DNA from: an uncultured virus (IMG/VR IMGVR_UViG_3300023109_000008)
Lineage: Duplodnaviria; Heunggongvirae; Uroviricota; Caudoviricetes
Virus record (IMG/VR): IMGVR_UViG_3300023109_000008
Direction: 5' to 3' (one strand)
Length of the DNA: 64,000 nt
The position numbers and the translations under genes were made by a program. This document shows positions 1 to 17,181 of this stretch, in pieces. Every line of letters begins with the position of its first letter. Within the stretch, counting starts at the first letter, position 1. The notes beneath the pieces are model-generated. The model ran no database searches. It saw only the letters and a program-made list of their open reading frames with translations, and was not told the DNA's origin.

Positions 1-1
1 G

Positions 2-1141
2 TACTACAACAAACGTTCTCTGATTAAGAAAGAGATGTTGAAGGTGGAACAGGCTCTGGAAGACGAGACAGATCCACGTAAGAAAGCAAAACTAAAATCC
101 AAGGCAACCCAACTTCACAATGCACAGATGTCTATCAAGATTTCTATGAACTCATTGTATGGTGCGACTGCGAACATCTACTTCCTGTATTACATTATGG
201 AATTCGCAGAGGCGATTACCACCTCTGGTCAATTGTCCATTCGTTATGCACAGAAGTCTGTGAATGGGTACTTGAACAAACTATTGAAGACAGAAGGTGA
301 AGACTATATCGTGTATATCGATACTGACTCCATCTATGTAAACTTTGGCCCACTGATCGAAGAAGTATTCGGGACTGTTGACATTACAAGAGAACAAGGC
401 GAGAAGTTCCTTGATCAGGTGTGTGGTACAAAGATTGAAGGCGTCCTTGAGAAAGGATATGAGGAACTCGCTAAAAAGATGGGTGCATACCGTCAAGCGA
501 TGTTCATGAAACGTGAGAAGATCACAGACAAGTCAGTGTTTATTGCGAAGAAACGTTACATTATGAATACACTGAACTCTGAGGGTGTCCACTACGAAAC
601 TCCCAAGATCAGTGTTACTGGTCTGGAATCCGTACGGTCATCTACTCCTCAGATCTGTCGTGAAAAACTCAAGGACGCTTTCAAAGTTATTATGGAAGGT
701 ACTGAAGAAGACACACAAGAATTTATTGCAAAGTTCAAAGACGAGTTTACGTCTCTACCCCCAGAAGATATCGCCAAGAACTCTGGTACTGACAACATTG
801 AGAAGTACATGGAGAAGGGTGGATACAAGAAGGGTTGTCCTATGCATGTTCGTGGGTGTATTCTCTTCAATCAGTTTCTGAAGACTAAGAAGTTGGACAA
901 GAAGTTTGAAGGGATTCAGTCTGGTGACAAGATCAAGTTCCTATATCTCAAACAACCAAACCCTGTAAAAGAGAATATGATCTCATTCCCAGGCGTCCTA
1001 CCAAAAGAGTTCGGACTGGATGATTACATCGATTACCAGAAACAGTTCGAGAAGGTCTTTCTTGGCCCTATCGAACCAATCTTAGAGGCGCTCGGGTGGG
1101 CACCAGAAAAAGTAAACACATTAGAGGATTTCTTTGTATGA
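2..1141 (+). CDS. gp43: Family B DNA polymerase (T4 gp43-like), C-terminal part; 5' end lies outside the window
   Basis: PolB motifs KISMNSLYG, YIDTDS and KKRY; the frame is open back to the window start; C-terminal LEDFF clamp-binding-type tail. Confidence 0.97.
   Translation, partial: YYNKRSLIKKEMLKVEQALEDETDPRKKAKLKSKATQLHNAQMSIKISMNSLYGATANIYFLYYIMEFAEAITTSGQLSIRYAQKSVNGYLNKLLKTEGEDYIVYIDTDSIYVNFGPLIEEVFGTVDITREQGEKFLDQVCGTKIEGVLEKGYEELAKKMGAYRQAMFMKREKITDKSVFIAKKRYIMNTLNSEGVHYETPKISVTGLESVRSSTPQICREKLKDAFKVIMEGTEEDTQEFIAKFKDEFTSLPPEDIAKNSGTDNIEKYMEKGGYKKGCPMHVRGCILFNQFLKTKKLDKKFEGIQSGDKIKFLYLKQPNPVKENMISFPGVLPKEFGLDDYIDYQKQFEKVFLGPIEPILEALGWAPEKVNTLEDFFV
1121..1141 (+). repeat. 21-bp direct repeat, copy 1 (TTAGAGGATTTCTTTGTATGA)
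   Basis: Identical to 1516-1536; encodes LEDFFV* and contains an SD-like GAGGA plus an overlapping ATGA. Confidence 0.95.
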
Positions 1142-1536
1142 TGGACAGTATAGTAGAACAGTCTTTTACCAAAGAAGAGATTGGGACATACAAAAGAATT
1201 CGTTCGCTCCAACAAAACATTGGACGACTGTTAGAAGATTATATCAATTCTAAAATGTCGGATAATGTTTACTTTGTTGGTAGGGATAGAGACAGACCAG
1301 AAGGTGTTGACTATGTTGTCGATGGTGTCTTCTGGTCTGTAAAAAATGCATGGAATACTGACAACCATTCCATGAAAAAATATCGGGAAGACCGAAATAT
1401 TAAACACTGGTATCGATTGAATAAAAATGGATCCACTAATTGGGATACACTTTTTGTTAAGGACGTTTCAGAAAGTGGGTTTTTAGAATTCGTAACTGGT
1501 CAAAAACAACCGTCTTTAGAGGATTTCTTTGTATGA
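1138..1536 (+). CDS. SinI-like (PD-(D/E)XK) restriction endonuclease-like protein with a C-terminal LEDFFV tail
   Basis: Motifs IGRLLEDYI, GVDY, SVKNAWNTDN, IKHWYR, TNW and SESGFLEFV follow the RE_SinI family pattern as I recall it; ATG overlaps the gp43 stop. Confidence 0.65.
   Translation: MMDSIVEQSFTKEEIGTYKRIRSLQQNIGRLLEDYINSKMSDNVYFVGRDRDRPEGVDYVVDGVFWSVKNAWNTDNHSMKKYREDRNIKHWYRLNKNGSTNWDTLFVKDVSESGFLEFVTGQKQPSLEDFFV
1516..1536 (+). repeat. 21-bp direct repeat, copy 2
   Basis: Identical to 1121-1141. Confidence 0.95.
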
Positions 1537-1712
1537 ACGATAAGATAGAACGCCGATTGAAACATCTTGAAGATGCACACAAACATCAACATGCCATCGT
1601 AGAAGCGTTGATTGGTGAGAAAGCACCAGATCAACACATCAGTAAGGCAAAGAAAGAAAAACTTAGAATTAAAGATATGATAACAACTTTGAAGGAGACT
1701 GTCAATGTATGA
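1533..1712 (+). CDS. Small DUF465/YdcH-like coiled-coil protein (59 aa, not in the ORF track)
   Basis: Manual translation MNDKIERRLKHLEDAH...SKAKKEKLRIKDMI; KKxKLxxKD motif; ATGA overlap with the upstream stop. Confidence 0.65.
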   Translation: MNDKIERRLKHLEDAHKHQHAIVEALIGEKAPDQHISKAKKEKLRIKDMITTLKETVNV

Positions 1713-1998
1713 TTTTGACTTACTAAAGGAACAACTTGCAACTGAAGTTGTTGATATTGAATTTGTGAAAGCAGATGGTACGGTGCGCCAGATGAAAGCG
1801 ACACTGGATCCGTCCGTTCTCCCAACACCAGTGGCAACTGATGAAGAGATCAATCGTAATCGCAAAAAGAGTGAGGAAGTCGTTGTCGTTTGGGATGTTG
1901 AGTCCAATGGTTGGCGCAGTTTCCGTAAGGATCGACTTCGTTCGGTTAACTCACAATATATCATGACAACGAAAGGTGTATATAATGTCACTGTTTGA
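1705..1998 (+). CDS. SH3/WYL_2-like (DUF2693-like) beta-barrel protein
   Basis: FVKADGTVRQMKATL...VWDVESNGWRSFR pattern common in T4-like phages; AAGGAG SD. Confidence 0.7.
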   Translation: MYDFDLLKEQLATEVVDIEFVKADGTVRQMKATLDPSVLPTPVATDEEINRNRKKSEEVVVVWDVESNGWRSFRKDRLRSVNSQYIMTTKGVYNVTV

Positions 1999-2341
1999 TG
2001 ATATCAATAAGTTTGGTAATGCGTGTGACCAAGAACCGTCACCAGAAAACTATGCACTGTATCTTGATCTAATCGAAGAAGAATTCGGTGAACTTAAAGA
2101 CGCAGTGATGTTAGAAGATAGGGTTGAACAACTAGATGCATTGATTGACATTCTTGTTGTAACTATTGGTGCAATTCGTGCAGCTGGTATGGATGGACAA
2201 GGTGCGTGGGATGAAGTTATGAAAACAAATTTTGCGAAGATTGATCCAGATACTGGTAAGGTTCGCAAACGTGAAGATGGAAAAGTTCTAAAACCAGAAG
2301 GGTGGGAACCACCAAGGCTTGACAAATTCTTAGGAGAGTGA
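1985..2341 (+). CDS. MazG-like NTP pyrophosphohydrolase (PRA-PH-like)
   Basis: EEEFGE...LDALIDILVV, EVMKTNFAK and REDGKVLKPEGW. Confidence 0.85.
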   Translation: MSLFDDINKFGNACDQEPSPENYALYLDLIEEEFGELKDAVMLEDRVEQLDALIDILVVTIGAIRAAGMDGQGAWDEVMKTNFAKIDPDTGKVRKREDGKVLKPEGWEPPRLDKFLGE

Positions 2342-2347
2342 TATAAT
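2319..2347 (+). promoter_or_regulatory. Sigma70-type (early) promoter
   Basis: Perfect TTGACA-N17-TATAAT. Confidence 0.75.
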
Positions 2348-2606
2348 GGGTAATGATAAAATTTCAGAGCGTGATGAACTGATGGTTATTCTTATGGAAG
2401 AATGTTCAGAGGTTGCAATCGAAGCTGCAAAGATGATCCGATTTGGATATGACAACAATCAGAAGTTGGAGTCAGAAGTCGGTGATCTTATGTGTATGTT
2501 GAACTTACTACACGAATGGGATTTGATTAGTTGGAATAATGTGGATGCATGTGCAGACGCAAAACGTGAGAAACTTAAAAAATGGAGCAACTTGACTCTT
2601 GACTAA
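2346..2606 (+). CDS. Small MazG-like pyrophosphatase domain protein
   Basis: LMEECSEV...K..RFG...LESEVGDL (EExxE/ExxD pattern). Confidence 0.7.
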   Translation: MGNDKISERDELMVILMEECSEVAIEAAKMIRFGYDNNQKLESEVGDLMCMLNLLHEWDLISWNNVDACADAKREKLKKWSNLTLD

Positions 2607-3705
2607 CAATCTAAACAATGATCAGGCATTGCACTGTGCAAACATCTTCAATAATTACTTTGGTCAGTTCGATAGAATTGATGAGTACATGCGTGATCAG
2701 AAGATGGCACAGATTCGTTCACTACCTCAAACTTTGCCTGGCTTTGGTTTTGATACAGACATGTTTGATGACTTCTCCATTTCCCCACAGGACATGGATC
2801 TAGAGGTCATCGAACTTGACAATATGACTTGGGATACCTGTTTGAATATGATTAGTAGTCATAGTAATATGGTTTCAATCCCAGGCAAGGCCCTTAAACT
2901 GGCAGTGCGTGAGAAAAACACTGGACAGTTTGTGGGGTTCATGCGATTTGGTTCGCCAGTGATCAACTGTGCGCCTCGCAATCAACTCCTTGGTAACGTA
3001 CCAGAACTGTCTACGTTTAACAGAACTGCGATTATGGGATTTGTTATTGTCCCATGTCAACCATTTGGTTACAACTACCTTGGTGGTAAACTACTGGCAT
3101 CATTGTGTTGTTCACACGAAGTCAGAGAAAAACTCAACAAGAAATACGGTATGAACCTCGTAATGTTCGAAACCACATCCTTGTATGGAAATACAAAAGG
3201 TGCGTCGATGTACGATGGTATGAAACCATTACTGCGTTACAAAGGTAACACAATGTCAGACTTCATTCCTATGATGCATGGTAAACCATTCTTGGATTTA
3301 GTTGCATATGTGGAAAACATTGTTGGTAGAGGTGTGCTTGTAAAAGAGGGTGCTTCAAGTCGTAAGTTGAAATACACAAATGCGATTATTGGTTTGATAA
3401 AGAAATCACTGAAAGGTGATGAACTCAACAGGTTCAAGAAAACTATTGAAGATGCCAAGGCATTGACAGAACAGAAACGTTACTATGTCTCAAACTACGG
3501 TGTAGAAAACTTTGTTGACATTGTAAACGGTAAGACTGATCAAATTGTTAAGGCTCCAAACTGGGATAAATACTATCAGAAAAATGTGATCGAATGGTGG
3601 CGTAAACTCGCAACCAAAAGATACAATAAACTAAACGAAGAGGATCGTCTAAGAAACGATCTGGAAATTTGGACTGAAGATAGTAATATCGATATTATCA
3701 GATAA
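2599..3705 (+). CDS. DUF4338 / Druantia DruA-like protein
   Basis: PFGYNYLGGKLLASLC..S.EV, FETTSLYG and S.YD motifs. Confidence 0.6.
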   Translation: MTNNLNNDQALHCANIFNNYFGQFDRIDEYMRDQKMAQIRSLPQTLPGFGFDTDMFDDFSISPQDMDLEVIELDNMTWDTCLNMISSHSNMVSIPGKALKLAVREKNTGQFVGFMRFGSPVINCAPRNQLLGNVPELSTFNRTAIMGFVIVPCQPFGYNYLGGKLLASLCCSHEVREKLNKKYGMNLVMFETTSLYGNTKGASMYDGMKPLLRYKGNTMSDFIPMMHGKPFLDLVAYVENIVGRGVLVKEGASSRKLKYTNAIIGLIKKSLKGDELNRFKKTIEDAKALTEQKRYYVSNYGVENFVDIVNGKTDQIVKAPNWDKYYQKNVIEWWRKLATKRYNKLNEEDRLRNDLEIWTEDSNIDIIR

Positions 3706-3715
3706 TGGAGTTGAG

Positions 3716-4489
3716 ATGGTCAATACAGTTTGTGTACTAACGAACTTTCGTGCAGGTAGTACTGCTTTCACCCTTTTAAAATCAAAAGAATATGATCTTC
3801 CTTACATGGGAGAATTATTCAGTCACGAACGTCCTTGGGAGTATGGTGGACATTTAGCATTTTGGCAAGAACTAGAGATGGGACGTGATGATCCAGACAA
3901 TCCCCTCATCCCTACTTTTGTACAGGGACGCCCATTTCGTGAGGACTATATCAAGGCCTTGAAGAATGGGGAACAGACATGTTTTAAGTTGATGCCTGAT
4001 CATGTCATCGAACCTTGGAGACGTAAACCTTGGCCGCATGGAGAGGTTGATTTAGAAATTGTTAAGTCTGTAGATAAGGTAATCTTACTCTATCGTCGTG
4101 ACTGGAAGGCGCAGGTCTTGTCTTGGGTTGCACTAAGAACTAACGGTGAGTTTGGTAGGAATGGTCTAAGACATAGTCGTAAGAGTGGTAATCCTCGACT
4201 GGTTGATTTTCATTGGAACATGCATGTCGCAGAAGATTACTATGATGAAGCGGTAGTGAGAACGTTGGATGTGGAACCAGAAAGTCAATATGTTGAAAAC
4301 CTTGCAGGTCAGTTGAAACTGAACTATCTAAGGATGGCAGAATTACACAAACAACTTGATAATGTTGAGGTGGTGTGCATGGAAGACTTCTTTGCAACAC
4401 AACCCTATAAGAAATATAACCATGTGTTCGACTGGAAGAAGGGCGAACCTGTAGTAGAAGATTTTGATGTGGAAGGTTTATTTACATGA
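3716..4489 (+). CDS. Sulfotransferase-like protein (Stf0-like fold)
   Basis: N-terminal FRAGSTAF (PAPS loop-like), GELF, FKLMP and ILLYRRDWKAQVLSW. Confidence 0.6.
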   Translation: MVNTVCVLTNFRAGSTAFTLLKSKEYDLPYMGELFSHERPWEYGGHLAFWQELEMGRDDPDNPLIPTFVQGRPFREDYIKALKNGEQTCFKLMPDHVIEPWRRKPWPHGEVDLEIVKSVDKVILLYRRDWKAQVLSWVALRTNGEFGRNGLRHSRKSGNPRLVDFHWNMHVAEDYYDEAVVRTLDVEPESQYVENLAGQLKLNYLRMAELHKQLDNVEVVCMEDFFATQPYKKYNHVFDWKKGEPVVEDFDVEGLFT

Positions 4490-4740
4490 ATGTAGTGAAA
4501 GTACAACTTGATGATGTGGCATTTAAAGCAGAACATGCACAAGAACAGTATGGAATTTATGACGCCCAACCAGCGGTGTTTATGATAGAAAAGTTGAACG
4601 ATTGGAAACAAGATGGTCATAAAATTATTATAGAAACAAATCGTGACATCAACACAGACATGGATGTAACCTTAGAATGGTTGAAACATTATGAAGTTCC
4701 ATATGATGAACTTCAGTGGTCTCTGCATCGTTACAAATAA
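4486..4740 (+). CDS. Degenerate HAD-like (capsule-biosynthesis-type) phosphatase
   Basis: GHKIIIETNR...TLEWLKHYEVPYDEL; the DxD motif is poorly conserved. Confidence 0.5.
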   Translation: MNVVKVQLDDVAFKAEHAQEQYGIYDAQPAVFMIEKLNDWKQDGHKIIIETNRDINTDMDVTLEWLKHYEVPYDELQWSLHRYK

Positions 4741-4765
4741 AAAACGTTTTTATTTCGAAAAGGGC

Positions 4766-4794
4766 TTGACATTTCGTTGTAGATGTATTATATT
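4766..4794 (+). promoter_or_regulatory. Sigma70-type (early) promoter
   Basis: TTGACA-N17-TATATT in an intergenic region, with an AT-rich upstream tract. Confidence 0.75.
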
Positions 4795-4822
4795 GTATCT
4801 GTAACTAATGAGAGATTATATT

Positions 4823-6178
4823 ATGAATTACTTCCGTCAAATGTCCTACAAAGATGCGGTCTTCACAATGAATGCTTATCGTGATCAAATCGGTAAGTTC
4901 CAAGAAGCAGACCTTGCATTCCAAGCAAACAAGTATTCTCGTTGGGAATGGTGGCAGAAGTCTGCATACATTGGTTCTGTCATCTTAGGTAAAGCACCTT
5001 CCAAGTTTATCTTTGCAGACGCAGACGAATGTCTTGCAGCTGCAGTTGAACGTGGTGACAAGGGCGATATCAAATACTTCCAAGAGAAAGTAGATCGTGG
5101 TATCAAGTATATCAACGTCGACTCTAACAACCGTAACAATGTTATCGTAGATTTCATGAACAACAAGATACGTCTTGTTCATGGTAAGTATGATATCCAA
5201 GGTGCAACTGTGGCGGTTGATGAAGATAACGATACTTACGAGACTCTTGATCCTGTACTTGCAGATGCATTCCACGAAGCTATCGTTACCATCTCTGTTT
5301 ATACAGATGCGACACGTGAAGAACTATCTGAATTGTTCCGTAATGTGAACGATGGTAAACCTTTGACGCACCCTGAGATTCTTAACTCTTACACCACTAC
5401 AGTTGCGAATACTGTACGTGAACTGGCAGACAAACATGGTGATTACTTTGTAACACAAGGCAAGTGGTTTTCAAACTCCAACATCAATCGTCGTGGTATT
5501 GATCAGTTCATTGCAAACTTGGCATTCCTATTTTGTTATGATATCAAGAAATCTATTTCCAAAACAAATATGGAAAACTTCTATCGTGATGGTTCTGATG
5601 GTGAAGTTCAGATCAACAAATTCCGTACAACATTCAATGCCTTCATGAAAGATGTGATGTCTGAGGATGCATATGCAATTGCAAATCGTAACTCAGTCTT
5701 TGACTTGTTTGTTATCTACTGTGCAATGAAAGACAAGAAAATGAAGATTGATGACAATCGTTCATTCCTTCAACAGTACATGACTGCAGTTGTTACACTT
5801 CTAACAAATGGTCAATATTACGAACACGATGATTTCAAAGATCCAAAATCGTTTGGCACGATGGTTGGTGGATTACAGAAGACAAATAACGTCCTTCGTA
5901 ACCAACTGATCATGGAAGTGTTCGACATCGATTCTGTCACAACAAAGTTAGACAAGAAACGTACATACAGTACACAAGACAAAATGGTTCTTGCAGTTAA
6001 CTCTGGTTTCATGACGCCTGAAGGTAAAGAGATAGAAATGTCTGAGTTGCATACGAATAAATACCACGGTGGACATGTTGATCCACACAAGGATGGTGGA
6101 GAGACTACCATCGAAAATGGCGTGATTCAAACTGCAGAAGATAATCTGAAGTTGGGCGGCAACCCTTTAAAAGTATAA
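4823..6178 (+). CDS. DUF262 (GmrSD/ParB-like) plus C-terminal HNH endonuclease protein; alternative start at 4808
   Basis: FQ...RW, VDSNNR (DGQQR-like), LFRNVNDGKPL and C-terminal GHVDPHKDGGETTIENG. Confidence 0.7.
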   Translation: MNYFRQMSYKDAVFTMNAYRDQIGKFQEADLAFQANKYSRWEWWQKSAYIGSVILGKAPSKFIFADADECLAAAVERGDKGDIKYFQEKVDRGIKYINVDSNNRNNVIVDFMNNKIRLVHGKYDIQGATVAVDEDNDTYETLDPVLADAFHEAIVTISVYTDATREELSELFRNVNDGKPLTHPEILNSYTTTVANTVRELADKHGDYFVTQGKWFSNSNINRRGIDQFIANLAFLFCYDIKKSISKTNMENFYRDGSDGEVQINKFRTTFNAFMKDVMSEDAYAIANRNSVFDLFVIYCAMKDKKMKIDDNRSFLQQYMTAVVTLLTNGQYYEHDDFKDPKSFGTMVGGLQKTNNVLRNQLIMEVFDIDSVTTKLDKKRTYSTQDKMVLAVNSGFMTPEGKEIEMSELHTNKYHGGHVDPHKDGGETTIENGVIQTAEDNLKLGGNPLKV

Positions 6179-6188
6179 TGGAGATATA

Positions 6189-7061
6189 ATGGACATTAAA
6201 ATTACAACAGAACAACTAAAGGGATATTCGATTTTTGTCGGAACCCCCATGTACGGTGGAAACTGTTCTGGACTTTTCACAAAATCTTGTAACGATCTGG
6301 CGATGTTGTGTACCCAAGCAGGTATACCAATTCGTTTTTACTATCTCTTCAACGAGAGTTTGGTACAACGTGCACGTAACTATGTCGTAGACGAATTCCT
6401 TCGATCTGAATGTTCTCACTTGATGTTCATTGACTCTGATATCCACTTCAATGCAAAAGATGTACTTGCGTTGCTTGGTCTTGCGGTACATGATAAAGAA
6501 AAGTATCACATCATGACTGGCCCCTATCCCAAGAAAACTATTGCGTGGGAAAAGGTTGCAGAAGCTGCACGACAAGGTAAGGGTGAAGAAAACCCATTCC
6601 AGTTGGAGAACTACACATCAGACTTCGTATTCAACCCAGTGCAGGGAATGAAAGGTCAATTCAAATTGAGTGAACCAATCGAAGTATCTGAAGCAGGTAC
6701 TGGATTCATGTTGATTCCACGTGAGGTTCTTGAGAAGTACCGTGATACATATCCAGAATATAGTTACAAACCAGATCATGTACGTACTGAGAACTTTGAC
6801 GGTGAACGTAATATCACTGCCTTCTTTGACTGCATCATTGATCCTGTATCAAGACGTTATTTGTCGGAAGATTATTTCTTCTGTCAACAGGCACGTAAAG
6901 CAGATCTTCGTGTATGGATGTGTCCTTGGATGCAACTAAACCACATTGGTATGCATATCTTCAAGGGTAACATGGGTGCAATCGGATCTCTTGGTGTATC
7001 TGCCACAGCAGACGCAAGATCTCGCCCAAAGAACTATAAAAAGAAATCGAAAAGAAAATAG
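6189..7061 (+). CDS. GT-A fold glycosyltransferase-like protein
   Basis: IFVGTPMYGG, NESLVQRARN, HLMFIDSDI (DxD), GTGFMLI and YLSEDYFFC. Confidence 0.8.
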   Translation: MDIKITTEQLKGYSIFVGTPMYGGNCSGLFTKSCNDLAMLCTQAGIPIRFYYLFNESLVQRARNYVVDEFLRSECSHLMFIDSDIHFNAKDVLALLGLAVHDKEKYHIMTGPYPKKTIAWEKVAEAARQGKGEENPFQLENYTSDFVFNPVQGMKGQFKLSEPIEVSEAGTGFMLIPREVLEKYRDTYPEYSYKPDHVRTENFDGERNITAFFDCIIDPVSRRYLSEDYFFCQQARKADLRVWMCPWMQLNHIGMHIFKGNMGAIGSLGVSATADARSRPKNYKKKSKRK

Positions 7062-7090
7062 TTGCCAATGAGTGAAGAACAGCGTATAAT
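7062..7090 (+). promoter_or_regulatory. Possible sigma70-type promoter
   Basis: TTGCCA-N17-TATAAT. Confidence 0.5.
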
Positions 7091-7325
7091 CCTTATTAGT
7101 GATTTCATCGAACAGAAATTACGTAAAGAACAAGAATTAGAATTCTACCTCAAACAAATCGAGAAACTCGAAACTAAAATCGGGTTTCTGAGGCGAGAGG
7201 TGGATTTAACGAATACGATCATAGGTATGATTAAGGGTGATATGGTTTACGACATCAAAGAAGGGATGATCCAAAACGATAACACCAAACTGTTAAATGA
7301 AAAAGACAATGGAGAAAAGAAATGA
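7068..7325 (+). CDS. Hypothetical coiled-coil protein
   Basis: ORF tiles between its neighbours with an ATGA overlap. Confidence 0.6.
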   Translation: MSEEQRIILISDFIEQKLRKEQELEFYLKQIEKLETKIGFLRREVDLTNTIIGMIKGDMVYDIKEGMIQNDNTKLLNEKDNGEKK

Positions 7326-7789
7326 AACATTTCTGTCTAGCAACCGCCCTAACATTATGTGCAACAACTGCATTTGCAAACGATTCGATGTATGCAGTTA
7401 AAGTTAAAGGATCAGTGGTTGACCACTATCGCACAGTTACAGAAAGTATCCCCACTACCGTACGAAGATGTATGGATGTAGATGTTCCTATCTACGGGCG
7501 TACGGGCGGGGGCGCATCCGCAGGCGATGTCCTTGGTGGTTTGATTATCGGTGGTATCCTTGGTAAAGGTGTATCTGGTAATGATCAAGGTGCAGCTGCA
7601 GGTGCAGTTCTTGGTGGCATGATCGCTGCAGATAACAAACGAGGAAAAGATCAGATCGTTGGTTACAAACAAGAAACTCGTTGTCGTAATGAAACCACGT
7701 ATGATAACACAACTAAAGAAGTTTATTCTCATTCTATAATTACCTTTTCTGAAAAGGGTAAGAAGTATAAAGTTCGTTTTGTGAAGTGA
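7322..7789 (+). CDS. Secreted glycine-zipper 2TM protein
   Basis: Signal peptide ending AFA; GGLIIGGILG...AAAGAVLGGMI glycine zipper. Confidence 0.75.
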   Translation: MKHFCLATALTLCATTAFANDSMYAVKVKGSVVDHYRTVTESIPTTVRRCMDVDVPIYGRTGGGASAGDVLGGLIIGGILGKGVSGNDQGAAAGAVLGGMIAADNKRGKDQIVGYKQETRCRNETTYDNTTKEVYSHSIITFSEKGKKYKVRFVK

Positions 7790-7980
7790 GACGTAGATCG
7801 ATTCATCCAATGGGGGAAGTTCTTTCCCCTGCGAACCCTCTGAAGTACTTACAGGTACGCATAAAAATGTTACGTGATGAACGTGAGAAAAACGATGATG
7901 AAACTGCTCACATGATATTGGATAAATGTATAGACGAGTTATACGTAGTCTATGAATTACTGAAAAGGCAGGTAAGATGA
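7786..7980 (+). CDS. Hypothetical protein
   Basis: ORF with overlapping start and stop on both sides. Confidence 0.55.
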   Translation: MRRRSIHPMGEVLSPANPLKYLQVRIKMLRDEREKNDDETAHMILDKCIDELYVVYELLKRQVR

Positions 7981-8384
7981 AAGTGGGTTTTACTGCATCT
8001 GCATTTGATTTGCTTCACGCTGGACACGTTCAGATGTTACGTGAAGCAAAGGATCAATGCGACTATTTGATATGTGGACTTCAGATTGATCCTATGATTG
8101 ATCGTCCGTCCAAGAACTCTCCCATCCAAACCGTTGTTGAGAGATACACGCAACTAAAAGCAATTAGTTACGTAGATGAGATCATTCCGTACTTGACAGA
8201 GGCGGACTTAGATGATATACTGTCCATGTATCAAATCGACGTAAGAATCCTAGGCGTAGAATACAAAGAGAAAAACTTTACTGGTTATGAAACTTGTAAG
8301 AAACGTGGGATCGAATTGTACTACAATAAACGTGACCATAGATTCTCTTCGTCCGATTTACGTAAAAGAGTATGTGAGAGGTAA
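7977..8384 (+). CDS. Cytidylyltransferase (glycerol-3-phosphate cytidylyltransferase/TagD-like)
   Basis: FDLLHAGH (HxGH), YVDEIIPY and SSSDLR. Confidence 0.85.
   Translation: MKVGFTASAFDLLHAGHVQMLREAKDQCDYLICGLQIDPMIDRPSKNSPIQTVVERYTQLKAISYVDEIIPYLTEADLDDILSMYQIDVRILGVEYKEKNFTGYETCKKRGIELYYNKRDHRFSSSDLRKRVCER
8193..8221 (+). promoter_or_regulatory. Possible intragenic sigma70-type promoter
   Basis: TTGACA-N17-TATACT. Confidence 0.5.
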
Positions 8385-8386
8385 AC

Positions 8387-9256
8387 ATGGAACCAGTATT
8401 TGAAAAAGGTTACCCTTCTTTTGAAGCGGTAAACCGAACCCCATCCCAAAAGAAAAAGACTACAAACATAACAGTAGCAGGGTATGGTTATGTGGGTAAG
8501 GCAGTTGTTAATGCTTTTTCTCAGGTGAAGTCAGTGAAGTATGATATCGTGGATCCACAGTATCGTGAATGGAACTTCCCTATTAAACAGGATTCAGACG
8601 GTGTCATCGTCTGTGTATCCACTCCAAAATCGTCTGATGGTTCTTGTGACATTACCAACGTGGTAAATGTTATTGATGACTCACCAGACGTTCCTATCCT
8701 TATTAAGTCTACCATTAGTCTTGAGGGTTGGGAACAAATTAAAACCGCTTTTCCAGACAAACAGATTTCATTCAGTCCAGAGTTCCTTCGTGCGGAAACT
8801 GCATTGTATGATTTCGAAAACCAGAAGTATATGATTATTGGTAATGATACATCAGATTCATTCTGGTCAAGTTTGTTTATAAAACGTTTTAAACGGATTC
8901 GCATCCACCACTGCACGAATGAAGAAGCTATTGCCGTCAAGTATGCAGAGAATGCATTCCTTGCACTGAAGGTAAGTTACTTCAACCAACTATATGATTT
9001 CTGCAATAAAGCAAACGTTGACTTCAATGAGGTCAGGTATCACTTATGTTTAGATGAACGTATTGGAGATGATCATAGTTTTGTCACAGATGAACGTGGT
9101 TGGGGTGGACACTGTCTCCCCAAAGACACACAAGCCCTATTACATACTGCAAAACAATTCGAATCAAGTTTCTCATTAATTGAGGAGGCGATAAAATATA
9201 ATCAAAGAATTCGCCGAAAAGACTTGACAAAGGATGAGTTTTGGGGTATAGTATAG
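8387..9256 (+). CDS. UDP-glucose/GDP-mannose dehydrogenase family protein (lacks the C-terminal domain)
   Basis: GYGYVG, CVSTP, IKST, SPEFLR, KYAENAFLALKVSYFNQ and GGHCLPKD. Confidence 0.88.
   Translation: MEPVFEKGYPSFEAVNRTPSQKKKTTNITVAGYGYVGKAVVNAFSQVKSVKYDIVDPQYREWNFPIKQDSDGVIVCVSTPKSSDGSCDITNVVNVIDDSPDVPILIKSTISLEGWEQIKTAFPDKQISFSPEFLRAETALYDFENQKYMIIGNDTSDSFWSSLFIKRFKRIRIHHCTNEEAIAVKYAENAFLALKVSYFNQLYDFCNKANVDFNEVRYHLCLDERIGDDHSFVTDERGWGGHCLPKDTQALLHTAKQFESSFSLIEEAIKYNQRIRRKDLTKDEFWGIV
9224..9252 (+). promoter_or_regulatory. Sigma70-type promoter upstream of gp45
   Basis: TTGACA-N17-TATAGT. Confidence 0.7.
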
Positions 9257-9286
9257 TTTGAATACTCACAAGGAGATATGTATATA

Positions 9287-9949
9287 ATGAAATTCAGTGA
9301 ACGCACTCTTACGATTCTTAAGAGTTTTGCTACAATCAACAAGTCTATCCAGATGAAGGAAGGGAATGTCCTCAAGACAATCACTCCCGAACGGACGTTG
9401 ATTGCTAGCGCAACCATTCCAGATGAGATTCCATCTGACGCCTGTATCTACGATTTATCACGTTTTTTGTCGATTTTATCGCTTTATGCAGATGCCGATG
9501 TGGAGTTTCATGATAAATACTTTATTATTTCTGAAGGCAAACGCAGAACTAAATACCTATTCGCAGACGTTTCTATGATTCACGCAGCACCTGAGAAGGA
9601 TGTCAAAATCCCTTCTAAGGATGTAGAAGTCGATGTCTCATGGGATGACATGCAATCTGTATTGAAGGCTGCAGGAGTTCTTCAGTTCAGTGAGATCGCA
9701 TTTGTCGGTTCAAACGGCACATGTTATCTCAAAGCAATCGATAGTACTAATGAAGGGGCCGATGACTACGGTGTCGAAATTGGTAATACTGCCGATGAGT
9801 TTAAGATTATCATCAAGGCCGATAATCTTAAGTTACTGCCGCAAGACTATAGAGTTACGCTTTGTTCAAAAGGTATCTCTAAGTTTGAAGGTGACGATGT
9901 CACTTATTTTGTGGCAATTGATTCTAAGTCGACTTATAAAAAGGGGTAA
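9287..9949 (+). CDS. gp45: Sliding clamp (DNA polymerase accessory protein)
   Basis: MKFSERTLTILKSFATINKSI, IYDLSRFLSILSL and NLKLLPQDY; synteny with gp44. Confidence 0.93.
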   Translation: MKFSERTLTILKSFATINKSIQMKEGNVLKTITPERTLIASATIPDEIPSDACIYDLSRFLSILSLYADADVEFHDKYFIISEGKRRTKYLFADVSMIHAAPEKDVKIPSKDVEVDVSWDDMQSVLKAAGVLQFSEIAFVGSNGTCYLKAIDSTNEGADDYGVEIGNTADEFKIIIKADNLKLLPQDYRVTLCSKGISKFEGDDVTYFVAIDSKSTYKKG

Positions 9950-9957
9950 AAAATACC

Positions 9958-10227
9958 ATGAACGAACAACAGCAAGCAGCAATGATGGGCACACAACAGC
10001 CTGTCGATCTTACACTACAGGACATTTCCACTGTAGTTCAAATTATTGATGCGGTCTCTCGACGAGGCGGTTTCGAGGGTCAGGAACTGGCGGGAGTTGG
10101 CGCTCTCCGCAATAAAATCGTGGCATACGTGAACCAACGTACACCTGTGCCAGACCCAACAGCAGAGGCAGATGTCGTCGAAGGCGATGTCCCACCAACT
10201 GCTCCACTGGCAGATAAAGTCCAGTAA
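9958..10227 (+). CDS. Hypothetical protein
   Basis: 89-aa ORF with SD; IIDAVSRRGGFEGQEL pattern resembles other phage hypotheticals. Confidence 0.7.
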   Translation: MNEQQQAAMMGTQQPVDLTLQDISTVVQIIDAVSRRGGFEGQELAGVGALRNKIVAYVNQRTPVPDPTAEADVVEGDVPPTAPLADKVQ

Positions 10228-10274
10228 ACCATACCAAGAAGGGTAGAACCACTCAACGATGTTTCACATACCCA

Positions 10275-10312
10275 GAGGGGCGGGTTTCTAGACCGCCCCT
10301 CAAAGTCTTTTT
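10275..10312 (+). terminator. Hairpin, probable terminator
   Basis: GAGGGGCGG-N9-CCGCCCCTC followed closely by a T tract. Confidence 0.55.
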
Positions 10313-10337
10313 TATAATATGAACATGGTGGCGCAAT

Positions 10338-11297
10338 ATGCAAGAAGGTCTTACTACTAAAGTAAACGAAGTATTATGGGTGGAACGATACCGTCCTCAG
10401 TTGATTGAAGATACAATTCTTCCTCAACAAACAAAAGAAATCTTTCAAAAATTTATCAAGGATGAGAACGTACCAAACCTTCTCTTGACAGGTGGGCCTG
10501 GCGTAGGTAAGACTACAGTCGCAAAGGCAATGCTTGAAGAGATGGGTTGTGATTACATCGTAAAGAATGGATCACTCAACGTTAACATCGATGCCGTTCG
10601 TTACGATATCTCAACATTTGCTTCTGCAGTCAGCTTGACAGGTGGACGCAAATATGTTATATTTGACGAGGCAGACTACCTACCATCCTCTAATGTTCAA
10701 CCTGCACTTCGTAACTTCATTGAGGAGTACTCTTCGAATTGTGGGTTCATCTTTACTTGTAACTTCAAGAACCGTATCATCAGTCCTTTGAGGTCACGTC
10801 TCTCTGAGATAGACTTCTCTATTGACAATGAAGAGAAACCTGCACTCGCAGGGGCGTTCTACAAACGTGTTCTTGCAATCCTTGATCAAGAGGGTGTGTC
10901 ATACGACAAGAAAGTCATTGCAAAGGTTGTACAGAAATACTTCCCAGACTTTCGTCGTGTACTTACCGAACTTCAATCCTATGCTGCATCAGGTTCAATC
11001 GACGAAGGTATCTTTGTCAATCTGAAATCAGAAAGTGTTGATGAACTGTTCTCTTATCTGAAGTCTAAGAACTTCACTGAGATGCGCAAGTGGGTTGCAC
11101 GTAATTCTGATCAGGATATGAACGAGATGTTTCGTGCAATCTATGATGCTGCAGATGAACGTGTAGAGTTCCGTAGTATGCCAGGATTTGTAGTCACTAC
11201 TGCAGATTACATGTACAAGGCAAACTTCGCCTCTGATAGTGAGATCAACATGGTGGCATATTTGACAGAAATTATGATTGAAAGTGAATACAAGTAA
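10338..11297 (+). CDS. gp44: Clamp loader large subunit (AAA+)
   Basis: WVERYRP, Walker A GGPGVGKTT, DEAD, SRL and FPDFRR. Confidence 0.95.
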   Translation: MQEGLTTKVNEVLWVERYRPQLIEDTILPQQTKEIFQKFIKDENVPNLLLTGGPGVGKTTVAKAMLEEMGCDYIVKNGSLNVNIDAVRYDISTFASAVSLTGGRKYVIFDEADYLPSSNVQPALRNFIEEYSSNCGFIFTCNFKNRIISPLRSRLSEIDFSIDNEEKPALAGAFYKRVLAILDQEGVSYDKKVIAKVVQKYFPDFRRVLTELQSYAASGSIDEGIFVNLKSESVDELFSYLKSKNFTEMRKWVARNSDQDMNEMFRAIYDAADERVEFRSMPGFVVTTADYMYKANFASDSEINMVAYLTEIMIESEYK

Positions 11298-11464
11298 TGT
11301 CGACAGAATGTTTCTACTGCGTAAAACAATTCGATAAAGAAGAGTCATTCAAGATGACTGTAGAAATGGCAGAAGGACAGGCAACTTATGATGTCTGTCC
11401 TTCATGCGCAAAAGAGTTTGATCTAATCTTACAGGGTATTGAGGAGGCGAAAAATGAAATTTAG
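11297..11464 (+). CDS. Small zinc-ribbon-like protein (55 aa, not in the ORF track)
   Basis: Manual translation MSTECFYC...VCPSCAKEF; two CxxC pairs; TAATG overlap with gp44. Confidence 0.6.
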   Translation: MSTECFYCVKQFDKEESFKMTVEMAEGQATYDVCPSCAKEFDLILQGIEEAKNEI

Positions 11465-11678
11465 TCACACCCATAATATTGATGGTTCATCAATTGAAAT
11501 GAAATTAAATGAAGATGCAGACCTTGATGAGGTTCTTACTTCATTCACTGACTTCTTACGTGCAGTTGGATATGTAGTTTCTTATGACGAGGAACTGACA
11601 TTCGTTGGATCGTATGAACGTGAGAAGATGAAGTATGATGCAATGGTAGATGATGATGAGGACATGCTTCATGAGTAA
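11454..11678 (+). CDS. Hypothetical protein
   Basis: GAGGAGG SD; LDEVLTSFTDFLRAVGY pattern typical of phage hypotheticals. Confidence 0.7.
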   Translation: MKFSHTHNIDGSSIEMKLNEDADLDEVLTSFTDFLRAVGYVVSYDEELTFVGSYEREKMKYDAMVDDDEDMLHE

Positions 11679-12081
11679 AGAGTTCTCGCCCTTTGACTTC
11701 ATGAATGCTGCATCAGACTCTAAGAAGGATATCATTCGTGAGGCAGAGAACCCAGATCTTGCAGAGAAAGAATACTCATCGTATTCCTATGTTGTCAATC
11801 GTGGGTTCTCTTACTTTGAAGATACCATTCTTCATGCGAATGAGATGAACATCCGTTGGCCTATGTTAGACAACATGGCAGGCGCACAGTTCGATTATTA
11901 TCGTGCATCACTACGCAAACGCAAACGGTTCTCCAAGTGGCACAAGGCAGAACCTAATGAAGATCTAGATGCCATCCAGAAGGTTTATGAATGCAACAGA
12001 ACAGTTGCAAAACAGTATTACAAGGTTCTAAGTAAAGACCAGATGGAACATGTTTACGATAAGTTATTTGTTGGTGGTTAA
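11671..12081 (+). CDS. gp62: Clamp loader small subunit
   Basis: SPFDF, YVVNRGFSYFEDTILHANEMN and RKRKRFSKWHK. Confidence 0.9.
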   Translation: MSKEFSPFDFMNAASDSKKDIIREAENPDLAEKEYSSYSYVVNRGFSYFEDTILHANEMNIRWPMLDNMAGAQFDYYRASLRKRKRFSKWHKAEPNEDLDAIQKVYECNRTVAKQYYKVLSKDQMEHVYDKLFVGG

Positions 12082-12167
12082 AAAACACGTTTTGATAAAT
12101 ACTTTCGTTGGTTATGTTGATCAACACCACCCATAACAATAAATTATAAAAAAGGTGAACATGTATT

Positions 12168-12569
12168 ATGAACGAAGATATTTTTAAGGGAGTTGGTGTA
12201 GAGATTGAATTACCCTCTGATGATAGTTTTTTAAAAATTAAAGAGACGCTCACAAGAATTGGTATTTCTTCACGAAAAGAAAAAAGACTGTATCAGTCTT
12301 GCCACATCCTACACAAAAAAGGCAGATATGCAATCCTTCATTTTAAGGAACTGTTTATACTAGATGGTAAACAGAATACTTTCACAGACGAGGACAAAGC
12401 ACGCCGAAACACTATTGTAAATTTACTAGAAGAGTGGGAACTACTCAAGATCGTTGATAAAGAAAAAACCAAGGATCCAGTTGCCCCATTAAATCACATT
12501 AAGATCATTTCTTATAAAGAAAAAGATCAATGGGATCTTACAGTAAAATATAATATAGGAAGAAAGTAA
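12168..12569 (+). CDS. regA: Translational repressor RegA
   Basis: FLKIKETLTRIGI, LYQSCHILHKKGRYAILHFKELF and RRNTIVNLL. Confidence 0.96.
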   Translation: MNEDIFKGVGVEIELPSDDSFLKIKETLTRIGISSRKEKRLYQSCHILHKKGRYAILHFKELFILDGKQNTFTDEDKARRNTIVNLLEEWELLKIVDKEKTKDPVAPLNHIKIISYKEKDQWDLTVKYNIGRK

Positions 12570-12577
12570 TTTTTTGG

Positions 12578-12608
12578 TTGACATGACCTTCAATTTGTGA
12601 TATAAATA
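12578..12608 (+). promoter_or_regulatory. Composite promoter for hsp20: sigma70-type -35/-10 overlapping a T4 late box
   Basis: TTGACA-N17-TATAAA, where the -10 is part of TATAAATA (12601-12608). Confidence 0.7.
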
Positions 12609-12612
12609 ACAT

Positions 12613-12670
12613 TGTACGCCGTTATCGGGTACATAACATCAATCTTGCTTAATAAAGGAGATAGCAAATG
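12613..12670 (+). ncRNA. ROSE-like RNA thermometer in the hsp20 5' UTR
   Basis: Hairpin 12613-12633, then AUCUU(G)CU pairing with AGGAGAU (the SD) with a bulged G; UUGCU motif. Confidence 0.7.
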
Positions 12671-13117
12671 AATACTCGCAGAATGACTGCCGACTTACTT
12701 AATGATCCATTTTTTATTGGGTTTGACCGTGTACTAGATCGTATGCATCAAACAGGATCAAGTCAACCAAACTACCCACCCTACAATATACGCAAAGTAG
12801 ATGACGATAATTACGTCATTGAACTGGCACTTGCCGGATTCAACCAAGATGAACTTGATGTTGAAGTCAAGGACGGTGTACTTACTGTAGAGGGTAAGAA
12901 AGACGAAAAGTCGGAAGCGCAATATCTACACAGAGGAATCAGTGCACGACAGTTCCGTAGAAAGTTTACTTTGTCGGATACAATTGTAGTACGTGGTGCT
13001 GAATACCAAAACGGTATCCTTTACGTAGAACTTGAAAATGTGATCCCAGAGGAAAAGAAACCTCGAAAGATCTCTATTGGTTCAGTTGCTGGGAAGGAAG
13101 AACTTCTCACAGAATAA
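12668..13117 (+). CDS. hsp20: Small heat shock protein (Hsp20/IbpA family)
   Basis: NYPPYNI, IELALAGF, YLHRGISARQFRRKF, NGIL and PEEKKPRKI. Confidence 0.95.
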   Translation: MNTRRMTADLLNDPFFIGFDRVLDRMHQTGSSQPNYPPYNIRKVDDDNYVIELALAGFNQDELDVEVKDGVLTVEGKKDEKSEAQYLHRGISARQFRRKFTLSDTIVVRGAEYQNGILYVELENVIPEEKKPRKISIGSVAGKEELLTE

Positions 13118-13128
13118 ATAATGACTCA

Positions 13129-13153
13129 GGGGGGATTTATTCCCCCCATTTTT
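13129..13153 (+). terminator. Rho-independent terminator
   Basis: GGGGGGA-TTTAT-TCCCCCC followed by ATTTTT. Confidence 0.75.
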
Positions 13154-13176
13154 ACACACACAAACAGGAGAATAAA

Positions 13177-13383
13177 ATGAACGAATACATGTCTAATATG
13201 TGGATTGACGCAATCCAGAATGCAAAACGAGGTTGGGTATCAACTTGGGTGAAAGATGAAACACTCAGTAAACCCTTGAATGATTTTATCGACACTCAAA
13301 CCGCATTTACAAAAGCGTCCTTTAAACAAATCAATGAATTTTCTAATGCAACAGGCGAGATGCTCGCTAAGGTGGTGAAGTGA
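13177..13383 (+). CDS. Hypothetical helical protein
   Basis: AGGAG SD, 68 aa. Confidence 0.7.
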   Translation: MNEYMSNMWIDAIQNAKRGWVSTWVKDETLSKPLNDFIDTQTAFTKASFKQINEFSNATGEMLAKVVK

Positions 13384-13613
13384 TGTCTAATAAAAATCCA
13401 TTCGAAATCCGTTCTGAGATGTTGCAACTTGCAAAAGAATACATGGATCAACAGTATCATATGAACGTACAGTTCGCTGAGAAAATGATGGATCAAGGCA
13501 AGATGCAGATGGAAGAGTTTCAGAAAGTAACTGAAATGTATTCTGTACAAGACCTCATGGAAAAAGCAAAAGAAATGTATAGTTTCGTAAGTACACGAGA
13601 CGACAAAAGTTAA
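13383..13613 (+). CDS. Hypothetical protein
   Basis: NPFEIRSEMLQLAKEY...AKEMYSFV pattern; overlapping start. Confidence 0.7.
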   Translation: MSNKNPFEIRSEMLQLAKEYMDQQYHMNVQFAEKMMDQGKMQMEEFQKVTEMYSVQDLMEKAKEMYSFVSTRDDKS

Positions 13614-13617
13614 ACTT

Positions 13618-13653
13618 AAGGGGTTGCTTCATTAGGTTGCAACCCTTTTTTTT
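13618..13653 (+). terminator. Rho-independent terminator
   Basis: AAGGGGTTGC...GCAACCCTTTTTTTT. Confidence 0.8.
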
Positions 13654-13816
13654 GCGAACAAGTTGTCACACTTTCCAAATTTGCATAACGCCTATTCCAA
13701 ATTGGTAAGGGTTATTTACCTATTTCTGTACTAAATAAATGTGTGGAAAAGGAGTAAAATGTAGATCGTCTACGCTCGGATTAACACACACATTTATCAT
13801 ACATTTGGAGAACAAA

Positions 13817-14068
13817 ATGACACAAGCTATACTAGCAGCACATGGTTATACAACCAGATCAATCGAACTAATCATCAACGCCTTCAGAGACTTTAGAAAT
13901 TGGAGAATTGAACGTAGAGCAATTCGAGAAACTGAAAAAGCACTCGGCGGACTATCAGATGCAGATCTTATGGATATCGGTATCGCAAGAGGCGACATTT
14001 ATTCTATCGCACGTAAAAAAGATACAATCGAACACTGCGTTAATACAAATCTAAGAGGGTGGGTCTAA
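13817..14068 (+). CDS. DUF1127 (YjiS-like) small protein
   Basis: RRAIRETEKALGGLSDADLMDIGIARGDI matches the LxxLxDxxLxDIGLxRxDI pattern; GGAG SD. Confidence 0.85.
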   Translation: MTQAILAAHGYTTRSIELIINAFRDFRNWRIERRAIRETEKALGGLSDADLMDIGIARGDIYSIARKKDTIEHCVNTNLRGWV

Positions 14069-14241
14069 TGACAACATTAGTAGCAAACTATGTTTTCTCA
14101 CCGTTGTCGGGATTGTGGTCTTCCTTAGATCGGTATACCCAGATGATGGGTTACAGCAGAGCGGCTTCGGAACTCGCAAGGATGGGTATGCACAAGGAAG
14201 CGAAAGCGTGTATGATGGAAATCAAAAAACTATATAAATAA
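14068..14241 (+). CDS. Small hypothetical protein
   Basis: GYSRAASELARMG..EAK motif; TAATG coupling to the DUF1127 gene. Confidence 0.65.
   Translation: MTTLVANYVFSPLSGLWSSLDRYTQMMGYSRAASELARMGMHKEAKACMMEIKKLYK
14233..14240 (+). promoter_or_regulatory. T4 late promoter box
   Basis: TATAAATA. Confidence 0.5.
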
Positions 14242-14246
14242 TTTTC

Positions 14247-14432
14247 ATGACTAAACCCAATGAAAAATTTAAACTAAACGTTCGTGACGTAGAGCAGATT
14301 GAAACTGCTCTGCGTTTTCGCATGTTTGCAGCAGACCCAAAAGAAAAACAAGTTATCAACGAACTTTTGGCCAAGATGTACCATCAAAAAAATTGGTATC
14401 GTCCAAATAATAAAACCTATGTGGGTGGTTAA
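14247..14432 (+). CDS. Hypothetical protein
   Basis: 61-aa ORF converging on the next gene. Confidence 0.6.
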   Translation: MTKPNEKFKLNVRDVEQIETALRFRMFAADPKEKQVINELLAKMYHQKNWYRPNNKTYVGG

Positions 14433-16282: not shown

Positions 16283-16453
16283 TTACTTTCCCGACTGCAT
16301 TCGTTGTTCTTCTTTTTGTTTTTCTAAAAACTGTACTAACATCGCAAAATAAAGGTCACGTTCATAAGGTAATAAATTTTCTACGTCTGATATTGAGTAT
16401 TTATGATGCTGCACCAATGAAAAGACTATTTGATAATATTCTTTCAGACTCAT
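16283..16453 (-). CDS. gp51: Baseplate hub assembly catalyst (gp51-like); possibly also made as a frameshift fusion to gp26
   Basis: YYQIVFSLVQHHKYSISDVENLLPYERDLY. Confidence 0.75.
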   Translation of the reverse strand: MSLKEYYQIVFSLVQHHKYSISDVENLLPYERDLYFAMLVQFLEKQKEEQRMQSGK

Positions 16454-16464
16454 GTGACACAGCA

Positions 16465-17166
16465 CTAGGCGAAAAAAGATCTCATTCCTTCTATTACAAA
16501 TGTCTTTTCAGTACCTTCACTATTGGTATACTTCATTTCATGACGAAGTTTAGGCATTGTTTCAAAGAACTTTTGAATTTCTTTCATCACATCTCCCGTC
16601 ATATCGTTCATGAAGTCATCAACCTCTTCTTGCGAATAGTCAGAGAACTTGTGCGTTTCTTCTTCAGATGCAATTTGATCCAGCGAAGATGTCATAATGT
16701 AATAGTTTACAAGAGGGTCAGTTGCATCCATTGTGATAATTTGTGTGAACTGATCGATGGTAGGATACTTTAAAAACAAAGTATATTCATCATTAATTCT
16801 TACACGTTTGGAATGTTCTTTATCCTTGACAATTTTAACATCGTCAATGTTGATTTCCATCTCAACTCTCTCTTTTGTATCAGGATCTCCGATAGTAAAC
16901 TTAATTGCGTTATCTACAGATCTTGAACGTAGCACAAGAAGTACATATTCCAAATCAAACATTGCGAGTTTAGAAATATCTGTTTTAACCAGACAGTTAT
17001 TCACAATTTGTTTTGCCGCTAGTAGTTCTTGTTCACGGTCATTTGACTCTTGTGCAACCAAAAGAATCTTTTCTTCTTTGACCGTAAACGGTCTGTATTT
17101 TACTTTTCTACCAGTTGAAGGAAGTTTCAATTCAAAAAGTGGTAGATCAATTTTAGGTAAAGCCAT
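16465..17166 (-). CDS. gp26: Baseplate hub subunit/chaperone
   Basis: MALPKI...LPSTG..VKYRPFTVKEEKILL, FDLEY and KFFETMPKL. Confidence 0.88.
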   Translation of the reverse strand: MALPKIDLPLFELKLPSTGRKVKYRPFTVKEEKILLVAQESNDREQELLAAKQIVNNCLVKTDISKLAMFDLEYVLLVLRSRSVDNAIKFTIGDPDTKERVEMEINIDDVKIVKDKEHSKRVRINDEYTLFLKYPTIDQFTQIITMDATDPLVNYYIMTSSLDQIASEEETHKFSDYSQEEVDDFMNDMTGDVMKEIQKFFETMPKLRHEMKYTNSEGTEKTFVIEGMRSFFA

Positions 17167-17181
17167 AATATATTCTCCTTA

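Follow-up and report, generated by a model that had tools for sequence, protein, structure and literature searches.

A gene for a short, restriction-type nuclease lies directly behind the DNA polymerase gene (gp43) in a 64,000-nucleotide stretch of DNA from an uncultured T4-like phage (hereafter the window), and its predicted recognition site, GGWCC, is absent from the window and from all the carrier loci retrieved. The combination is unexpected: a trimmed frequent cutter that bears a clamp epitope, has no methyltransferase, and is predicted to recognise a site missing from every carrier. The reading we favour, with a probability of roughly 0.5, is that the gene encodes a mobile, clamp-tethered GGWCC cutter acting against co-infecting phages, to which its carriers are immune through absence of the site.

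The locus and its nuclease

The T4-like character of the window is evident from its gene content: it opens within gp43, and gp45, gp44, gp62 and regA are found at 9278–12569 (Table 1). Full-length relatives of its gp43, 845 aa long, are present in genomes G006 and G007. An earlier note on this DNA had described an exact 21-bp direct repeat bracketing a 132-aa ORF, which was confirmed; the two copies are spaced 395 nt apart and diverge at the next base. Its description of the junctions was equally accurate, as each copy encodes LEDFFV and a stop codon, has GAGGA 9 nt ahead of the start codon (ATG), and supplies an ATGA in which the stop overlaps the next start. Codon usage alone would give the same codons for the six shared residues with p about 0.002. 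The assignment of the 3′ neighbour to DUF465 (E 5e-4) is under the cut-off. Neither a promoter of its own nor a T4-type late promoter was found near the nuclease ORF. A one-mismatch copy of the repeat core occurs at 35836–35851, inside a baseplate-region gene, and is within chance (mean 0.99 expected). Elsewhere in the window, a 456-aa ORF (4808–6178) with weak GmrSD_N and HNH matches, both under cut-off, is a possible second nuclease, and a 368-aa ORF (2599–3705; phrog_19197) has a DruA-like domain above cut-off.

Table 1. Coordinates of the features discussed, in positions of the window.
Feature	Position	Strand	Evidence and remarks
gp43, 3′ part (family B DNA polymerase)	2..1141	+	PF00136, E 4.7e-18; gene start upstream of the window; ends NTLEDFFV
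Repeat copy 1	1121..1141	+	Clamp-type end of gp43; SD-like GAGGA; ATGA in which the gp43 stop overlaps the nuclease start
Trimmed AvaII/SinI-family endonuclease (predicted), 132 aa	1138..1536	+	Profile, fold, residues; tail PSLEDFFV
Repeat copy 2	1516..1536	+	Nuclease tail; equals the native gp43–DUF465 junction of gene-less relatives; SD and ATGA for DUF465
DUF465-like gene, 59 aa	1533..1712	+	Directly behind gp43 in empty-site phages
gp45 sliding clamp	9278..9949	+	PF09116, E 1.5e-16; PF21328; PF16790; putative partner of the tail
gp44	10338–11297		Clamp-loader region near gp45
gp62	11650–12081		Near gp45/gp44
GGWCC-free stretch	1..64000	.	0 observed vs 52 expected

The 132-aa ORF matches the RE_SinI profile (PF09570) with 30.1 bits against a cut-off of 22, at model positions 109–213 of 218, and AvaII is its sole significant sequence match in the PDB (6G3B, E 3.7e-10). 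Its predicted structure (pLDDT 88.7) is closest to 6G3B in a fold comparison (Z 8.6, rmsd 3.1, 116 residues aligned to AvaII 81–221; next unrelated row, Z 5.3), and the best Foldseek match is AvaII 6S48 (E 3e-6). The RE_SinI assignment proposed in the earlier note thus stands in both profile and structure; PHROGs holds no family that matches the ORF. The structural alignment begins at AvaII residue 81, so the N-terminal three-helix bundle (AvaII 9–68) is missing, while the core and surrounding helices are retained and the AvaII dimerisation helices fall inside the aligned range. Sequence and fold together show a trimmed enzyme that has kept the AvaII core, readout residues and dimerisation helices and lost the bundle.

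In the structural account of AvaII, E123, D147 and K163 are catalytic, Q161 is a metal ligand, N167, T168, N170 and N116 read the outer and inner G:C pairs, and H108, M112 and E115 read the central W (PMC7337904). The phage residues E33, D58 and K69 correspond to the catalytic three and are invariant in 36 aligned members; N73, T74 and N76 correspond to N167, T168 and N170 of the readout loop. Q25, Q26, R22 and Y18 stand at E115, N116, M112 and H108, with Gln or Asn at the N116 position in 52 of 67 short matches; the E115Q mutant of AvaII is described as keeping its specific complex (PMC7337904). At the metal ligand Q161 the phage protein has S67, and Ser is found there in 43 of 67 short matches vs 1 of 114 full-length matches, 110 of which have Gln. 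This substitution is the chief ground for doubting full activity, which may be reduced. The protein is an AvaII/SinI-family nuclease core and a candidate minimal GGWCC cutter: it very probably recognises GGWCC, and it probably cuts it.

The ORF has 38 close homologues (39–99% identity). The profile returned 308 matches, and among the 150 matches listed most are full-length enzymes of 200–260 aa. The median dN/dS of 0.14 (70 of 253 ORF pairs with usable dS) points to purifying selection on the ORF. The close family was found only on phage-like contigs: isolated phages gave no tblastn match to the ORF, none of 60 pattern matches in GTDB genomes was confirmed as close family, and every match in the protein atlas was below 0.9 and is no more than a lead. 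Among isolated phages, the C-terminus of the window's gp43 is under 60% to all 2490 matching records. None of 7999 longer candidates scored as a longer or fused form, which is weak evidence, and a scan of 237 loci from non-carriers, together with 48 genome pieces, detected no decayed nuclease copies. In five distant short homologues (P0040, P0046, P0048, P0051 and P0058) the residue at Q161 is Gln, Asp or Asn, and the C-termini are tail-like; the loci of P0040, P0058 and P0041 were not found in viral contigs.

The gene neighbourhood and Pfam searches bear out the remark that no methyltransferase adjoins the nuclease ORF. PF00145 was found in none of five partial genomes, which are incomplete, so that a distant copy is possible, and the exception within the family is L023/L024, with a C5 methyltransferase two genes upstream of the nuclease. 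Searches of the open-access literature returned no description of a phage-encoded AvaII/SinI-type enzyme, of a clamp-tailed restriction enzyme or of a site-absence pattern of this kind.

Clamp-type tail, empty sites and mobility

The tail of the nuclease, LEDFFV, is identical to the end of gp43, and the gp45 clamp is encoded in the same genome. In T4, the C-termini of gp43, gp55 and gp33 are described as binding gp45 through clamp epitopes that are interchangeable (PMC2988020). Of 36 aligned close homologues, reaching down to approximately 50% identity, 33 terminate in an S/T-L-E/D-x-F-F tail; among 114 full-length enzymes none does. Across 38 dereplicated carrier loci, a slightly looser pattern was matched in 23/23 loci behind gp43 and in 15/15 that lie elsewhere or have gp43 off the contig. 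These other insertion sites include the gp47–gp46 and gp44–gp62 junctions, where any gp43 repeat is lacking. Because the tail is family-wide and also present at sites away from gp43, it is an old, selected part of the nuclease. The same counts rule out a mere insertion scar, and they give no support to the suggestion that the nuclease had recently gained its clamp tether as a copy of the gp43 end.

No protein other than gp43 and the nuclease bears the tail in the window, G004 or G007. In L003, L110, L111, L014 and L015 the junction tails are altered (LEDFLYAV, LDGFFNK), apparently by small crossover indels, with the motif core intact. Two adjacent ORFs of 404 and 414 aa in G008 (159393–161864) end in TLEEFFA and TLEDFFA and are candidate clamp-tethered proteins, and an asparagine-synthase-like ORF in L023 ends in TLEEFLI.

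Among the best 80 gp43 relatives of the window in IMG/VR, the ORF is present only in L030, which is the same contig as L001. An empty gp43–DUF465 junction with a single 21-mer, as the earlier note had envisaged for related phages, was found in L025–L027, which are 99% identical to the window and depart from it at 7–8 positions across the final 1141 nt of gp43; for the empty twins taken together the gp43 figure is 6–8 SNPs. G001, the nearest record, 98.8% identical to the window over 1516–64000 (62.5 kb), has the same precise empty site, and L142 provides a second one as the counterpart of carrier L002. Of 21 sequencing runs, 4 were compared with the locus. A single contig in run X3, which belongs to a study other than the two regarded as possible sources of the window, spans 968–2100 with zero differences from the window, and run X4 holds filled and empty alleles in one sample at depths of 11.2 and 11.4; together these rule out the repeat as an assembly artefact. 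Run X7, an RNA library, has both alleles, with a 395-nt skip, in contigs that cannot show transcription, and in run X13 the middle of the locus is uncovered.

The nuclease gene has moved laterally. The ORF is identical to that of L001 at 391 of 399 nt (98%), whereas the two gp43 sequences have 221 mismatches in 1141 nt (81% identity), and other pairs show ORF vs gp43 identities of 88/56% and 82/49%. An AU test of 22 carriers, with the group picked from ORF identities, rejects that ORF-based clade on the gp43 alignment (p-AU 3.5e-49). The mobility of the gene was therefore borne out. Recent acquisition, as suggested in the earlier note, can apply to no more than the allele, since the whole lineage, empty twins included, is already GGWCC-free.

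In carriers with the gene behind gp43, the 3′ ends of gp43 and the ORF share an exact stretch of at most 5 to 25 nt, depending on the locus. The genes 3′ of the nuclease differ by lineage and, given a close gene-less relative, match what stands behind its gp43 (L002/L142, 30/30 nt; L106/L213, 28/30; window/L026, 28/30); several carriers gave no such match. In L016, the ORF ends in NWNVEPVASLDSFFQ, 16 residues that also close gp43 in gene-less L222; the gp43 of L016 itself ends in FFG and provides the TTG start of the nuclease ORF. The L016 tail and the matching downstream genes fit entry by a right-hand crossover between the nuclease tail and the gp43 end of the recipient, and the repeat fits a scar of that recombination. 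Spread would then use gp43 as left homology and the tail as the right match, creating the repeat, which would also permit precise loss of the gene. Flank comparison revealed no upstream co-conversion tract and a possible downstream tract over DUF465 in L001, the DUF465 region of which resembles that of the window lineage (27/30 nt) over that of its nearest gp43 relative (10/30). In the window, gain and loss are not polarised, and the GGWCC-free empty twins fit either loss or a pre-adapted lineage.

Other ORFs are also found at this junction. In L005, an endonuclease VII-like ORF (6396–6833) follows the nuclease at the gp43 3′ end, and L067 has an ORF just behind gp43 with a YIG-type start, a putative nuclease. 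The gp43 3′ junction looks like a nuclease hot spot.

GGWCC in carriers and their relatives

Against 52 copies of GGWCC expected from a second-order Markov model, the window contains none, while GGSCC is enriched, and among the single-mismatch neighbours of the site only GGWCC has a count of zero. All 66 Gly-Pro pairs use GGC or GGG for Gly, although GGA and GGT make up 86% of the remaining Gly codons. The earlier note had mentioned neither the absence of GGWCC nor the lost N-terminal bundle nor the change at Q161. Other carriers share the absence: the count is zero in 24/24 viral and 37/37 metagenome carrier loci (61 fetched; the sets overlap), in 38 dereplicated loci (0 of 308.5 expected), and in whole carrier contigs (0/117, 0/35 and 0/67 expected). 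When carriers were set against 33 dereplicated non-carriers from the window's clade in an unbiased scan, GGACC was the most carrier-depleted 5-mer. Within the close nuclease family, which is what this rule covers and to which P0040, P0058 and P0041 do not belong, carriage has required the absence of GGWCC at every locus examined.

Absence of the site reaches beyond the carriers. In the window's clade, GGWCC is found in 76 of 79 non-carriers, the three exceptions being empty twins, and four sister contigs that lack the gene (gp43 84–89% to the window) keep the site at 27 of 63 expected; site-bearing T4-like genomes include G005 and G008, with 103 and 174 copies. By contrast, 30/78 and 42/80 non-carrier relatives of other carriers are GGWCC-free, and the site is missing in 75 of 237 non-carrier loci overall. 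G002 and G003, 87–88% complete, have no RE_SinI gene and are nevertheless site-free over 145 kb (0/150 and 0/171). By genome class, there are 38 carriers, 108 non-carriers that have the site, 50 that are free of it, and 12 uninformative cases. Informative carriers are site-free in 24/24 cases vs 50/158 for non-carriers, a difference with Fisher p 3e-11 when kinship is ignored. In a tree-corrected test, for which 148 of 205 rows had sufficient power, 14 independent pairs gave 4.2 as predicted, none opposed and 9.8 without difference, and with a median p of 0.125 the tree-corrected association is not significant.

GGWCC is not the only palindrome that is absent. The window also lacks CGCG (0/66), GGTACC (0/15), GCATGC (0/14), CGATCG (0/12) and GACGTC (0/8), and the sister contigs share these zeros (CGCG 0/91, GGTACC 0/13, CGATCG 0/17, GACGTC 0/14, GCATGC 0/14). 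GACGTC (0/45) and CCCGGG are zero in carriers too. Since several other palindromes are absent, including GACGTC from carriers, host restriction may have purged GGWCC first. The absent-palindrome pattern is common to the window, G001, G002, G004, G007 and G013, and G008 lacks none of these palindromes. CCWGG is low and nonzero, at 0.31 of expected in carriers, 0.17 in site-free non-carriers and 0.71 in site-bearing phages.

Proposed function and known systems

The favoured reading links these features as follows. The ORF would be a solitary endonuclease that descends from AvaII/SinI-type restriction enzymes and has become adapted to T4-like phages. A carrier would need no methyltransferase, as its genome offers no GGWCC to cut; the absence of the site is observed, and its protective role is proposed. 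By analogy with T4, the S/T-L-E-D-F-F tail quite probably docks the nuclease on gp45. As gp45 sits on replicating T4-like phage DNA, the tail would address the enzyme there. With the carrier's own DNA immune, the cuttable clamp-loaded DNA would be that of a co-infecting T4-like phage with sites, which would amount to phage-against-phage exclusion. This is the weakest step, and the reported finding that chlorovirus-encoded restriction enzymes did not cause mutual exclusion counts against it (PMC7019647). The expected outcome is three classes of phage: site-free carriers, site-free non-carriers and site-bearing non-carriers. When facing site-free phages the gene would bring no gain and may be lost via the repeat, which fits the mixed population of run X4. 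That the clamp-tethered enzyme itself, a host restriction enzyme trimmed into a phage-against-phage system lacking any modification partner, drove GGWCC from whole marine phage clades in place of host restriction, leaving killer, resistant and sensitive classes recognisable from their sequence, is a tentative and rather doubtful extension.

The same specificity and self-immunity would serve equally well if the enzyme were mainly used, like chlorovirus restriction enzymes, to fragment the host chromosome as a source of nucleotides and for shut-off, and the sequence evidence for both applies without change. Placement of the gene in replication operons agrees with that role, and degradation of host chromatin has been attributed to the chlorovirus enzymes (PMC7019647). 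A clamp tail, however, is unneeded for host DNA and yet is under selection here, and the gene is patchy among near-identical phages, with alleles coexisting in one sample, unlike a core function. Furthermore, a host with a GGWCC restriction system would presumably have methylated DNA. We consider host-DNA cutting unlikely. A weak or dead protein that counters restriction, by binding GGWCC or by poisoning a host AvaII-like enzyme through pairing, would leave site absence to be explained by that host enzyme. The Q161-to-Ser change and the lost N-terminal bundle are compatible with such a decoy, and the many site-free non-carriers and other absent palindromes point to host restriction. It is nonetheless quite improbable: E33, D58 and K69 are invariant in the 36 aligned members, in a site-free phage there is nothing left to protect, and with an inhibitor sites would be expected to persist, yet none of the 38 dereplicated carriers has one.

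Very improbable, in our judgement, is a nearly neutral passenger, in which an active enzyme taken over from a host system would survive only in already site-free phages and bring them little benefit. The similar depths of filled and empty alleles in run X4 and the commonness of site-free non-carriers would suit it, but the dN/dS of 0.14 and a family spanning approximately 50–99% identity with a novel tail would not, and precise loss through the repeat is easy and should purge a useless gene. Least probable is the selfish homing element that the earlier note had mentioned, taken here as a free-standing endonuclease that has evolved a longer, rare target near gp43 and spreads by gene conversion. 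Such an element would resemble the seg/mob genes of T4 (PMC2988022) in being intergenic, beside core genes, promoterless, patchy and laterally moved, and the downstream gene of L001 is nearer to the window lineage (27 vs 10 of 30 nt). Classical homing fits poorly, however, with a five-base site and an empty twin that offers no GGWCC target. The 132-aa protein has no added DNA-binding domain, and the search of 7999 longer candidates for one with such an addition was negative, if weak evidence. The gene occupies several unrelated insertion sites without an upstream co-conversion tract, and with a long site the genome-wide loss of precisely GGWCC would be left unexplained.

When phage genomes avoid palindromes, the usual interpretation is past restriction by hosts. 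If phages encode short-site cutters to which site loss makes them immune, part of that signal would reflect phage competition, and host inference would need care. If the clamp-tethered cutter acts as proposed, it would represent a route to virus–virus exclusion through a clamp-addressed nuclease, without a long homing site or DNA modification, and its gene would move by using a functional peptide motif as a recombination handle. The prediction of GGWCC for a 132-aa protein is sharp and testable in a standard assay.

Compared with AvaII/SinI (PF09570; 6G3B, 6S48, 6S58), the phage protein shares the PD-(D/E)XK core, the E123/D147/K163 residues, the N167/T168/N170 loop, the long core helix and the predicted GGWCC specificity. 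It differs from AvaII (238 aa) in its length of 132 aa, the missing bundle, Ser at Q161 and Gln/Gln/Arg at E115/N116/M112. It differs from both enzymes in its clamp-type tail, in having no linked methyltransferase and in occurring on phage-like contigs only. Unlike a type II restriction-modification system, the nuclease stands without a linked methyltransferase, L023/L024 excepted, and in its mode of action it would come closest to a solitary type IIP enzyme. The bacterial enzyme PacI is an eight-base rare cutter of another fold. As a solitary enzyme whose survival is explained by the lack of sites in its own genome, it is the precedent for immunity of this kind (PMC3488263). Like PacI, the phage nuclease lacks a methyltransferase and would owe immunity to site absence, and unlike PacI it has a five-base site that is expected 50–170 times per genome and has been removed across many phage lineages. 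Seven solitary restriction endonucleases, uncharacterised, are counted among 520 virulent phages in the available part of a survey (PMC4176335).

Mobile nuclease genes beside core genes are also known from T4 seg/mob (PMC2988022) and PhiPA3 gp210 (PMC11620839), described there as acting against co-infecting phages. Those enzymes are of the GIY-YIG or HNH type and use one long target and local gene conversion, whereas the present nuclease would make many cuts in the genome of a rival and could not cut a site-free empty twin. Chloroviruses likewise are lytic viruses that direct short-site type II endonucleases against non-self DNA (PMC7019647), but in that account their enzymes are always encoded beside a methyltransferase, are packaged in the virion, act in a eukaryotic host and have no clamp tail. 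The portion available of the account of T4 gp45 names no restriction-type nuclease as a partner (PMC2988020). The tail nevertheless resembles the ends of T4 gp43, gp55 and gp33 described there, short hydrophobic-acidic C-terminal epitopes, and is here borne by a predicted restriction-type nuclease.
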